From IMG/VR virus record IMGVR_UViG_3300024344_003081: DNA of 64,000 nt. One strand, given 5' to 3'. A program made the position numbers and the translations under genes. The notes under the pieces are model-generated. The model was given only the letters and a program-made list of their open reading frames with translations. It was not told the origin of the DNA and did no database searches. Source of the DNA: a virus. Taxonomy: Duplodnaviria; Caudoviricetes. This document shows positions 40,893 through 44,245 of the stretch, piece by piece. Every line of letters starts with the position of its first letter. Position 1 is the first letter of the stretch.

Positions 40893-42746
40893 TCAACGAG
40901 CCCCATCAAATAAACCATCACCCATATAATTAAAGTCTACATTTTGTTGAATATCAGATCGAACAGTATTATGAGTAGTTTCTTGTAAAACTACATTATC
41001 TCCTCCTCCTCCTCGATTAACTGATCTTCTTCTTGTCTCTTCCCATTGTGCCAATATTTGTTGTGCTTTTAATTCACGTAGTTTATGCAATTGGTCCACA
41101 TCTACATTTCCTGCTTCTAACAATTTTTGCATAACTAGACTATTTTTTAATGCTCCTGGACCAATTTGATGATCTGGAATAGGTGGAGCGTTTTTACCTG
41201 GAAACCATATATCCCATAAACCTCCAGCATTTTTTATTGCTGAAAGTATCGTTGACAGTCCTAAACTGGTTGTTGGACTAACTCCTTGAGCCCGTAATGC
41301 ATCATCTATTACTTCTAAATCTTGTTGAGCTTGATGCATTTTTGTCTGTGTAGTTTGAGCCCCCCCATATGTAGCAAGTTCTTCTTCCAATTTCGCCGCT
41401 ACTACTGCTTTCTTTTTGGATATACCAAAAAGTGCATCAAGTTCATCAGTCACGACTTGCAATGCATATCCTAGTGCCGCTCCTAAAATCATACCTCCAA
41501 GTATTCCAGGTATACTTCCTGCAGTTAAAAATGCACCAGCTATACCGCCCAAAGCTCCCCCAGCAACCATTTTCCTAGCATATGGACTGGCTTTAAAATA
41601 TTCAACTAAAGCCTTTTTATAGGCATTTGCCATTCCTTTTCCTTCAGCTTTGTCAATTCTTAATGCTTCTGCTAAGACTGGTCCTGCTAATAGTCCAGCT
41701 CCAGCTCCAAGTATTAAACCAGCCATCATTCCTGCTGGACCAAATTTACTTAATACTAATGCACCAAAAAGTGCGCCACCTCCAGGAGCAAATTCTAAAA
41801 CACCTTTCATTTGATCACTTGAAAACCATTTCACTAAACCTGCAGTCATTGCCGATTTCCAATCTGCTCCAGTAGCTCTTTCTATCTCCATCATTTCTTT
41901 TATTGTACCAGCACCTATTATTCCAATACCTGCTCCAAGAATTGCTCCAGCCACCATTCCTGCAGGACCAAATAACATTCCCATTTTACCAAACAGAGCC
42001 GCCCCGCCCAATCCCATATAAGGAATAAAATTTTTGTATAAATGCTCTTTCACTTTATTCATTACATTTTTGGAATCTACTTTTGATTTATCTTCTGCAA
42101 AAATATGATTTAATCCAGTTAATGCCCCTCCAAGTACTCCGCCAATTATTGCTCCTCTTGGTCCCAATAAACCAAAACCGATCAAAGCTCCTTTTCCAGC
42201 ACCTCCTGCCGCGGCTTCAGCAAGTGATTTATATGCTCCTCCTGATGGAGAAAAAAATGAATCTATAAATGCTCTAACGCCACCACTAAAGGTGTCTTGA
42301 TCAAATCCTGCTTGTAATGCTTGAACTAATGCTGGTCCTGCAACGAGTAAAGCAATACCTCTTGCTAATTTGGGCAATAGTGCCATACCTAAAGATGCGG
42401 GCATGAATCTTCTTAATCCTCCAGGAATTCCCATAAGTGCAGTAGATAAGAAATTTCCCAACATTCCCATGAAACCCTTTCCTGAGAATCTTGGTAAATT
42501 CATCTTGGATTTCATATTTAATTCTTTTCTGCCTTCTTTTTTTTCCTCAAGTTCGTTTTCTCTATCTTTTCGGTCCTTAACTTTATCTGCATTTACCCCT
42601 TTTAGCAGAAGTCCTCTCATACTGTATAATAAAGCGGACTGTACTTCCATCTGTTTTTCGATGGTTGCAATATTATTTTTATTTTGATCTTTTAGTTCAT
42701 TGACAAGATTTTGAAAATGAGAATAATTGTGGGGTTTACGTGCCAT
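40893..42746 (-). CDS. Gly/Ala-zipper-rich protein, tape-measure (gp29-position) candidate
   Basis: Repeated GxxGAxxGxxxG hydrophobic helices; directly downstream of gp26/gp51. Confidence 0.55.
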   Translation of the reverse strand: MARKPHNYSHFQNLVNELKDQNKNNIATIEKQMEVQSALLYSMRGLLLKGVNADKVKDRKDRENELEEKKEGRKELNMKSKMNLPRFSGKGFMGMLGNFLSTALMGIPGGLRRFMPASLGMALLPKLARGIALLVAGPALVQALQAGFDQDTFSGGVRAFIDSFFSPSGGAYKSLAEAAAGGAGKGALIGFGLLGPRGAIIGGVLGGALTGLNHIFAEDKSKVDSKNVMNKVKEHLYKNFIPYMGLGGAALFGKMGMLFGPAGMVAGAILGAGIGIIGAGTIKEMMEIERATGADWKSAMTAGLVKWFSSDQMKGVLEFAPGGGALFGALVLSKFGPAGMMAGLILGAGAGLLAGPVLAEALRIDKAEGKGMANAYKKALVEYFKASPYARKMVAGGALGGIAGAFLTAGSIPGILGGMILGAALGYALQVVTDELDALFGISKKKAVVAAKLEEELATYGGAQTTQTKMHQAQQDLEVIDDALRAQGVSPTTSLGLSTILSAIKNAGGLWDIWFPGKNAPPIPDHQIGPGALKNSLVMQKLLEAGNVDVDQLHKLRELKAQQILAQWEETRRRSVNRGGGGDNVVLQETTHNTVRSDIQQNVDFNYMGDGLFDGAR

Positions 42747-42748
42747 TA

Positions 42749-42937
42749 TTAGGCCCTTCTTTCTTGATCTTTTTGTTTACTATTTTCTTGTTCTATATGA
42801 GCAATTAGCATTTCTACGTATATGTCTCTTTCAAAAGGCATTAAATTTTCTATTTCTGTTAAACTATATTTATGATGTTGCATCAATTGAAACGTTAGTT
42901 GATAATAGTTTGCTAAAGTATTATGACTACACATCAT
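42749..42937 (-). CDS. gp51: Baseplate hub/tail assembly chaperone, small subunit
   Basis: LMQHHKYSLTEIENLMPFERDIY signature. Confidence 0.88.
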   Translation of the reverse strand: MMCSHNTLANYYQLTFQLMQHHKYSLTEIENLMPFERDIYVEMLIAHIEQENSKQKDQERRA

Positions 42938-43677
42938 AAAAAAAAATCGCCAATTCCATTCAAAGTTTGTTTTTCATGACATTTACATTTAGAACATGTA
43001 AATTCAATATCGTGTAATATAGCAGGCATTGTGCCAAAAAACAGTTTAAGTTTTTCAAATTGATCACTTGATAAACTACTAATAAATTCTTCCAGTTCTT
43101 CTTTATTATATTCACCTGCATTAAATACTTCTTCACCAGAATATATGTTATCAATACAATCAATAACAATACTAAACAATTCTGCTACAGTTGAAGTTTT
43201 TTCATTTTCCATGTCTGCTAAACGATTATAAACTTCCATTGTTGGATATTTCATTTCAACAGTAATTGTATCTGTTAATTTAATGTTCTTAGAATGTTTA
43301 TCGTTTGTAGTAAGTTTTATATCAGCAAGATTTATTTTTACTTTTGTTTGAGCATCACAAGATTCCCCATTACTATTTGTTTCTTCTCGATGTTTTATCA
43401 TTAGTTCAACAACTTCACCAACAGATTTTGCTCTTATATTTAATAATGCCATCTGTAAATCAAATAATGGTAATTCTTCAGCATTTACTTCTTCTGATAA
43501 AATACAATTATTGATTATTTGTTTTGAAGTTCTTACTATTTCATCTTGTTCTCCCCCCTCCATAGCCATCAATAAAAGTTTCTCTTCTTTGACTAGAAAG
43601 GGTCTGTAAGTTACTGGTTTTTTTATTGAAGTCAAGTTCATTGTAAATGTAGGTGCTTCAATTTTGGGTAAACTCAT
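42934..43677 (-). CDS. gp26: Baseplate hub assembly protein
   Basis: LPKIEAP..YRPFLVKEEK.LL, RAKSVGE, C..C...GIGDFF. Confidence 0.92.
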   Translation of the reverse strand: MSLPKIEAPTFTMNLTSIKKPVTYRPFLVKEEKLLLMAMEGGEQDEIVRTSKQIINNCILSEEVNAEELPLFDLQMALLNIRAKSVGEVVELMIKHREETNSNGESCDAQTKVKINLADIKLTTNDKHSKNIKLTDTITVEMKYPTMEVYNRLADMENEKTSTVAELFSIVIDCIDNIYSGEEVFNAGEYNKEELEEFISSLSSDQFEKLKLFFGTMPAILHDIEFTCSKCKCHEKQTLNGIGDFFL

Positions 43678-43702: not shown

Positions 43703-44245
43703 TTACGCAACACTAGGGGGATTGGCTCCAGTTGAAATTCTGCTCATTTCCCATTTTCGATATGCAAAGGTAACACTAAGTCTTGCATATTCATTATTTT
43801 GTGACCATCCCAAATTTATTGCTCCCACATTTAGGGGAAATGCTTCTCTAAATCTTATTCCATAACTTCTAACATTTTCTTCTGTAAATGTTCTTAACCA
43901 AATATCAGTTGTATAATCATTATAATATGAAGCATCATATAGATCGGGATCAACTATATCATTTTGCCAATTGTCAAAAAACTCTTTTTCTTTCCATCCC
44001 TCTGCAGAACAAATAAATGTCATTGTAGTATCAATGAACATTTGACCATAACCTATTTTTCTTACTGGTCCATATAATTTATCTTCAACTGTAAGCATAG
44101 TTTTACCAGGAAGTTCTGCTTGTTCGCATTGAAATACGCTAAAATCAGAATCTTGTCTACCGATATAGACTTCATATCTATTTAATGGTGCGGGACCATG
44201 TTTAACATTTAATTTGCTTCTAAAATTATCTACACTTAAAGGCAT
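43703..44245 (-). CDS. gp54: Tail tube initiator (tube-protein family)
   Basis: CEQAELPG, F..W...I, Y..AFP..VG...L, V.F.YR.W. Confidence 0.7.
   Translation of the reverse strand: MPLSVDNFRSKLNVKHGPAPLNRYEVYIGRQDSDFSVFQCEQAELPGKTMLTVEDKLYGPVRKIGYGQMFIDTTMTFICSAEGWKEKEFFDNWQNDIVDPDLYDASYYNDYTTDIWLRTFTEENVRSYGIRFREAFPLNVGAINLGWSQNNEYARLSVTFAYRKWEMSRISTGANPPSVA

Follow-up and report, generated by a model that had tools for sequence, protein, structure and literature searches.

A trans-frame gp26-gp51 protein is very probably made in this uncultured marine phage of the T4 type by a programmed −1 frameshift on a run of U residues at the end of the gp26-like gene, as judged from the sequence of the site and of its relatives. 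The stretch of DNA analyzed here (64 kb, 29% G+C, referred to as the window hereafter) carries late genes of the T4 type on its minus strand, and their order on that strand is a gp2-like DNA end protector, a 180-aa protein of the tube class, a 247-aa gp26-like protein, a gp51-like ORF, and a 617-aa protein. The features in and around the site are as follows.

43703..44245, minus strand: tail-tube-like protein (gp54/gp19 class), 180 aa; from PHROG 45 and a weak Pfam gp19 match
43677..42934, minus strand: gp26-like gene, 0-frame product of 247 aa; from PF12322, PHROG 150, and an AlphaFold model
42937..42946, minus strand: slippery U9 run with two in-frame −1 heptamers; from the sequence
42749..42937, minus strand: gp51-like small domain in the −1 frame, 62 codons and a stop; from PHROG 634, PHROG 150, and the HMM of the fused product
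40893..42746, minus strand: presumed tape measure, a Gly/Ala-rich protein of 617 aa and positional analogue of T4 gp29; from position, size, and composition

The 3′ end of the gp26-like gene reads GGC GAT TTT TTT TTA TGA (...GIGDFFL*), and the T run at 42938-42946 consists of nine bases, which the plus strand reads as A9. This U9 run holds two overlapping heptamers, T_TTT_TTT (42946-42940) and T_TTT_TTA (42943-42937), both of the in-frame X_XXY_YYZ form and located one to two codons before the TGA. From about 42973, the −1 frame runs without a stop into the gp51-like ORF, whose ATG (42937-42935) overlaps the TGA of gp26 as ATGA. No purine-rich Shine-Dalgarno (SD) sequence was found before this ATG in the window, where U's alone precede it. 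In these respects, namely the sequence of the gene end, the stop-free path in the −1 frame, and the lack of a clear SD sequence before the gp51-like ORF, the description given in the initial annotation was confirmed. A search of the 64-kb window with the HMM of the fused product located the gp26/gp51 system in a single copy.

In the mechanism that we propose, most ribosomes would terminate at the TGA and release the 247-aa gp26-like chaperone, while on U_UUU_UUU or U_UUU_UUA a minority would move back by one base and continue through the 62-codon gp51 domain. The conceptual product of this slip is a fusion of 309 aa with ...GDFF(F/L)MMCSHNTL... at the junction.

Conservation of the slippery heptamer

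When 50,697 phage records were searched at the protein level, 684 matched, all of them with less than 60% identity. They are mostly cyanophages, accompanied by Vibrio, Aeromonas, Stenotrophomonas, and Sinorhizobium phages. Each of them (684/684) has one gp26-like place, and thus a separate gene 51 paralogue was not detected there. A scan of IMG/VR provided 80 loci of 32-80% identity, and scanning it again with the proteins of K445 and VH7D yielded hardly any more. The 3′ end was complete in 82 IMG/VR and isolate loci. All 82 have the gp51 domain in the −1 frame and an in-frame T_TTT_TTN 2-5 codons ahead of the gp26 stop, and in all of them no stop codon interrupts the −1 frame between the heptamer and the domain. 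The same arrangement was found in six distant phages: VH7D (host Vibrio), a KVP40-like contig, phiM9, LPCS28 (Cronobacter), OLIVR5 (Agrobacterium), and XG4 (Pseudoalteromonas); the heptamer of the Sinorhizobium phage phiM9 is T_TTT_TTG. In total, the heptamer occurs at 88 of the 90 loci where the gp51 domain is downstream of gp26.

Three features were found in the codon analysis, for which 38 representatives sharing less than 70% identity were used. One is that the first Phe codon is TTT in all 38, against a background of 71% TTT among the Phe codons of the same genes. Another is that the codon preceding it also ends in T in all 38 (GAT 17, AGT 13, AAT 4, TCT 3, CGT 1) and encodes any of four amino acids, Asp, Ser, Asn, or Arg; in the background, AGT and TCT together account for 54% of the Ser codons, and CGT for 12% of the Arg codons. 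The last feature is that the second Phe codon is free, being TTT in 23 and TTC in 15. An invariant T-ending codon and an invariant TTT, combined with a free last position, form the pattern expected of X_XXY_YYZ. Since the lineages are related, the codon counts are partly dependent, and these frequencies cannot simply be multiplied into a true probability; on the other hand, the amino acid and the Z position have turned over, and thus the sites have had time to change. Phe-Phe is conserved as protein too, by which the T run is partly explained. The counts strongly support the view that selection acts on the nucleotides beyond this protein-level conservation. The heptamer X XXY YYZ is thus conserved at synonymous sites in the aligned gp26 3′ ends, as the initial annotation had anticipated, and the mixture of TTC and TTT codons free of slippery conservation that it had named as a contrary sign does not appear among these frameshift-type homologs.

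The length of the run in the window bears on two other explanations. The U9 run is the sole A or T run of at least nine bases in the 64-kb window, and the expected number of such runs is from about 8 (iid) to 14 (first-order Markov); from the comparison of these expectations with the one run found, the U9 run was judged to exceed chance. It is covered by contigs of three independent DNA metagenome studies with zero insertions or deletions, and T9 is identical in 21 of 21 relatives with 67-80% protein identity. The length of the U9 run is therefore not an assembly error. Homopolymers are prone to error, and the frame break could in principle be an artefact, either a homopolymer sequencing error within one fused gene or a sign of gene decay. 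Such an artefact is extremely improbable, however, because the run length is equal in the contigs of the three studies and in the 21 relatives, and because the −1 frame relation recurs in 90 loci, some of which belong to finished isolate genomes that have just six T's.

The other explanation concerns the step at which the slip would occur. If RNA polymerase added one U on the U9 run, some mRNAs would carry gp26 and gp51 in frame, and the fusion could arise mainly via transcriptional slippage. A/T runs of about nine bases cause polymerase slippage in bacteria and phages, and both the presence of T9 in all 21 relatives of the window clade and the uniqueness of the run in the window agree with this possibility. 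Most lineages, however, have only six T's (T_TTT_TTC), a length at which polymerases do not slip efficiently but tRNAs can re-pair, and it is the in-frame heptamer, not the run length, that is conserved. Ribosomal slippage is therefore favored, and a mainly transcriptional origin of the fusion is unlikely, although polymerase slippage could contribute on the U9 run of the window clade.

Natural controls and the start of the gp51 domain

Eight T-even-type controls (T4, Moon, PMBT63, KIT01, an Acinetobacter phage, AV108, avDM7, and one IMG/VR contig) were compared with the frameshift-type loci. In 8/8, gene 26 ends without a slippery heptamer and gene 25 comes directly next; the 3′ ends read GAR TTC TTT, TTT GTT, TTT CTG, or G TTT TTT, the last with the −1 frame closed at once. 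A separate, divergently transcribed gene 51 of full length was found in 7/7 isolate controls. Among the 90 loci with the gp51 domain downstream, the heptamer is absent from two, those of Vibrio phage K445 and Pseudomonas phage Cygsa01, where the 3′ ends read ..TCA CTT TTC AAG TAA (L096:3680-3940) and ..AGC ATT TTC ACC TAA (L108:1770-1985), respectively. In both phages, the gp51 domain is still in the −1 frame and has a Met at its start, and the tree places the two in one clade nested among the frameshift types. From these sequences, it looks as if this clade switched from recoding to a free small protein, and the small gp51 domain can probably work as a separate protein, to judge from this lineage. 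The T-even controls and this clade together indicate that the slippery site is retained exactly where it would be needed.

The beginning of the gp51 domain is variable in the remaining lineages. Before or at the domain start, ATG is missing in 19 of the 38 representatives, and any of ATG, GTG, and TTG in 15 (~40%). The closest relatives of the window (76-80% identity) have TTA TAA or TTA TAG at the gene end, by which the ATG becomes ATA while T9 is kept. In run X16, an independent metagenome, a strain variant has TAG in place of TGA at window 42934-42935; there too the ATG is lost, and the gp26 stop and the U9 run are kept. In addition, the stretch of the −1 frame that precedes any Met after the heptamer encodes conserved residues (R/Y-I/L-x-L-x-H); in lineages that do have a Met, it stands in place of a conserved Leu.

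These data can be set against an explanation in which no recoding takes place here: gp51 would be a free 62-aa protein made by termination-reinitiation at the ATGA, and the U run would follow from the conserved Phe-Phe and the AT-richness of the genome. The window does have an ATG overlapping the gp26 stop, which would allow independent initiation, and ATGA overlaps are frequent there; moreover, Phe-Phe is conserved at the protein level, and K445 and Cygsa01 appear to use their own gp51 start in the absence of the heptamer. Nevertheless, it is precisely the ATG that is gone in the nearest relatives and in the co-occurring strain variant, in which the T run remains, and in the window no SD sequence stands ahead of it. 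The explanation also leaves the invariant wobble T of the preceding codon and the invariant TTT unaccounted for, while the T-even controls write the same Phe-Phe as TTC TTT. For these reasons, we consider a free gp51 in the window very unlikely and retain the −1 frameshift as the preferred reading.

The treatment of the gp51 domain in GenBank is uneven. In the records of Aswh_1 (L007:3690-3860), VH7D (L095:3825-4010), and LPCS28 (L104:1875-2045), the domain is present but unannotated, with no Met ahead of it, and the OLIVR5 record annotates it only after an internal Met (L107:2170-2360). A join at gp26/gp51 was annotated in 0/20 of the records inspected. One Acinetobacter phage record names gp51 'tape measure protein assembly chaperone'. 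As a separate observation, the record of Citrobacter phage Moon (NC_027331; L098:1-398) presents gp27/gp28 as a two-piece joined CDS, 'GT-like fusion protein'; to its annotators, the counterpart of G/GT was thus the 27/28 overlap and not 26/51. The overlap of genes 27 and 28 is 56 nt in T4.

The proteins, their T4 counterparts, and the neighboring genes

The gp26-like ORF matches Pfam PF12322 T4_baseplate, the family of T4 gp26 and gp51, with 197.9 bits (E 2.4e-58; gathering cut-off 24.5 bits), and fills positions 5-232 of the 282 in PHROG 150 'baseplate hub'. PF12322 was the sole significant family in 35/35 members scanned, and none of the Pfam chaperone families of the Phage_TAC type was matched. 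In the AlphaFold model of the protein (pLDDT 90.4, pTM 0.82), the N-domain (residues about 1-87) is followed by a second domain, of the alpha/beta type, and the C-terminus carries a pair of Cys. When residues 1-87 were compared exhaustively with 48,161 solved chains, the top match was the HK97 tail assembly chaperone 2ob9 (rmsd 3.4 over 82 aligned residues) with a structural Z of 7.2, which, like any Z below 8, is moderate and not strong. The second and third were 3fgx and B. subtilis YqbN, 3klu (Z 7.1 each), both of which we take to be prophage homologues of the HK97-type chaperone class; the fourth had a Z of 4.9. The N-domain folded alone matched several viral 'tail assembly chaperone' proteins (E 0.01-0.08, TM 0.5-0.65). 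In the Foldseek search of the N-domain against the PDB, 2ob9, 3fgx, and 5ir0 were leading with E values of 0.35-0.7, which are not significant; the whole gp26 model had zero significant matches in the same database, and the gp26 sequence profile had zero matches among the PDB sequences. These model-based comparisons give moderate support for an HK97 gp10-like tail-assembly-chaperone fold in the gp26 N-domain.

The first row of that Foldseek output, 5ir0, is ORF19 of a PICI-like element of Vibrio cholerae, i.e., of a phage satellite, and has a Z of 4.4 to the gp26 N-domain (residues 1-92); it also ranks close to the tail assembly chaperones. It hints that a satellite encodes a chaperone look-alike.

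The gp51-like ORF matches PHROG 634 'baseplate hub assembly catalyst' (E 3.9e-27) at profile positions 58-118 of 121, and also PHROG 150 at positions 238-276 of 282. Because PHROG 150 spans both ORFs in order, some members of this family hold both parts in one chain. The relationship with the T4 proteins was examined by use of an HMM made from 38 conceptual fusions (303 positions, junction near 243). On the window, this HMM matches at positions 1-244 in the gp26 frame and 238-302 in the gp51 frame, and the U run is where the two overlap. T4 gp26 aligns with positions 11-242, ending at the junction, while T4 gp51 aligns with positions 23-286 in a single stretch through the junction; six other T-even gp51 proteins also match across it, that of avDM7 in two stretches. 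T4 gp51 carries YSLNSISKMIPAERGF, for which the window counterpart is YSLTEIENLMPFERDIY. From these alignments, it is strongly supported that T4 gp51 corresponds to the predicted fusion product and T4 gp26 to the short form.

Several statements about T4 in the initial annotation can be judged from the same data. T4 gp26 was said to end near EFFELL, and its record reads ...KEFFELL. T4 gp51 was described as a gp26-like protein with a small C-terminal domain, which agrees with its collinearity with the fused product in the HMM comparison that had been suggested there. The idea that one slippery gene makes both products likewise gains support, from the 88/90 heptamers, the codon constraint, the missing start codons, and this collinearity. 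An unrooted tree of gp26, gp51, and the fused products contains three well-supported groups, the T-even gp26, the T-even gp51, and the frameshift type, and, being unrooted, gives no order for recoding and duplication.

One observation was made within the gp51 domain itself. In four marine/subsurface metagenomes, the summed contig depth rises about tenfold at window 42845-42885 (40 bases), which encodes the MPFERDIY core of the domain, and many short contigs diverge on either side. This segment seems to be nearly identical in DNA among many co-occurring phages.

The genes on both sides were also compared with known families. The 180-aa protein upstream matches PHROG 45 'tail tube' with an E of 3.7e-34, while its Pfam gp19 match is weak; the homologous upstream neighbor is annotated as gp54, tube initiator, or tail tube in phiM12, phiM9, Aswh_1, LPCS28, and OLIVR5. 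The complex prediction for the gp51 domain with the 180-aa tube-like protein gave a score of 0.01, which is uninformative in either direction. Downstream, the pair was claimed to sit directly upstream of a tape-measure candidate. The positional part of this claim holds, in that the 617-aa ORF starts 2 nt after the gp51 stop, while the identity of the candidate was not corroborated by the database comparisons: the protein had no match in Pfam (including PF25671) or the PHROGs, and BLAST against T4 gp29 and against the phiM12 and S-SSM7 neighbors gave no similarity. An Atlas feature search placed the T4_Tape_measure cluster at rank 31 with a score of 0.90, which is a weak lead. The 617-aa protein is presumed to be the tape measure from its position, size, and composition.

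Comparison with known frameshifts and implications

The −1 frameshift of lambda gpG/gpGT, conserved among tail assembly chaperone genes, is said to have been described by Levin, Hendrix and Casjens in 1993 and by Xu, Hendrix and Duda in 2004; the E/E+E' pair of P2 is a further tail assembly chaperone frameshift. Several points of likeness with lambda G/GT are found. The upstream ORF stops a few codons past an X_XXY_YYZ heptamer, and the downstream ORF lies in the −1 frame and is often startless. The gene order also corresponds to lambda V-G-T-H, that is, tube, chaperone, extension, and a long tape-measure-like gene, the tape-measure identity being presumed here. Furthermore, the gp26 N-domain has the HK97-type chaperone fold (at the moderate Z given above), and no conserved downstream RNA structure was found; the lambda G/GT frameshift needs no such structure. 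The differences are that the heptamer here is U_UUU_UUY while that of lambda is G_GGA_AAG, that gp26 is about twice as long, with an extra domain, a Cys-rich C-terminus, and no membership in the Pfam chaperone families, and that gp26 and gp51 belong to a complex baseplate hub of the T4 type. If lambda gpG/gpGT is taken as the model, the tape-measure or hub protein would be held by the N-terminal chaperone domain common to both forms, and the gp51 extension would supply a second contact, required in small amounts while the hub and tube are initiated. Such a G/GT-like working of the two forms is plausible.

Signals around the heptamer invite comparison with dnaX tau/gamma of E. coli, which likewise uses a homopolymeric heptamer to make two products with a common N-terminus. 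An SD-like GAGG, GGAG, or GGGG precedes the heptamer by 11-15 nt in 18 of the 38 lineages (47%, versus a background of 9%; e.g., L002:3690-3700), at the spacing that is stimulatory in dnaX. This motif overlaps conserved Glu-Gly codons and is absent from the window. In dnaX, however, slippage yields the shorter of the two products and depends on a strong hairpin downstream, whereas here the predicted shifted product is longer and no hairpin is conserved: no stimulatory RNA structure was found downstream in the window (z 0.39), and none is conserved over the 38 lineages (mean z −0.7). Structures with z below −2 downstream of the heptamer occur in 5/38 lineages, including S-SSM7 and L046. In these two, strong hairpins with z of about −5 lie a few bases past the heptamer (L002:3712-3760 in S-SSM7), and they may be lineage-specific stimulators; the majority of lineages lack such hairpins.

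With respect to T4 itself, the two products belong to the same family, PF12322; the 0-frame product aligns to the very end of gp26 (..FF..), and the trans-frame product aligns over the whole length of gp51, the C-terminal domain included. The genetic arrangement is different: T4 and its close relatives have two divergently transcribed paralogues, TTC TTT, and no slippery site, whereas here one gene with recoding would serve. In T4, gp26 (208 aa) and gp51 (249 aa) are baseplate hub assembly chaperones (PMC3004832, Table 2). According to the same review of the T4 tail, their mechanism is unknown, and gp51 is essential yet not in the particle (PMC3004832).

A full-text literature search, with subscription journals outside its coverage, gave no description of a gp26/gp51 frameshift. 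The type of mechanism is itself already known; the present evidence supports a widely conserved addition to the known class of −1 frameshifts in tail-chaperone genes, in a protein family not previously tied to that class. Relatives without a start codon for gp51 are available in culture, namely KVP40-like Vibrio phages, the Aswh_1/65-like Aeromonas phages, and Cronobacter phage LPCS28. As for a broader view, we lean slightly towards the view that gp26 and gp51 serve the whole T4 superfamily as its tail assembly chaperones, fold-homologous to lambda gpG and HK97 gp10, with recoding common outside the T-evens (cyanophages, marine, rhizobial, KVP40-like, and Aeromonas phages) and two paralogues only in the T-even branch. 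If this is true, it explains the apparent lack in T4 of the near-universal chaperone frameshift, and the 'catalytic' gp51 would gain a concrete role as an extended chaperone, present in low abundance, by which the tape measure is coupled to the hub or tube initiators.

The annotation of gp51 is inconsistent in hundreds of T4-like genomes, where it is a tiny free ORF, a piece beginning at an internal Met, or absent; if the frameshift is real, those records miss an essential product of ~300 aa. The finding would link gp26 and gp51, long enigmatic in the hub assembly of T4, to the G/GT chaperone principle, and the T4-like phages would offer a natural experiment on recoding versus gene duplication as ways of fixing the ratio of two related assembly factors.
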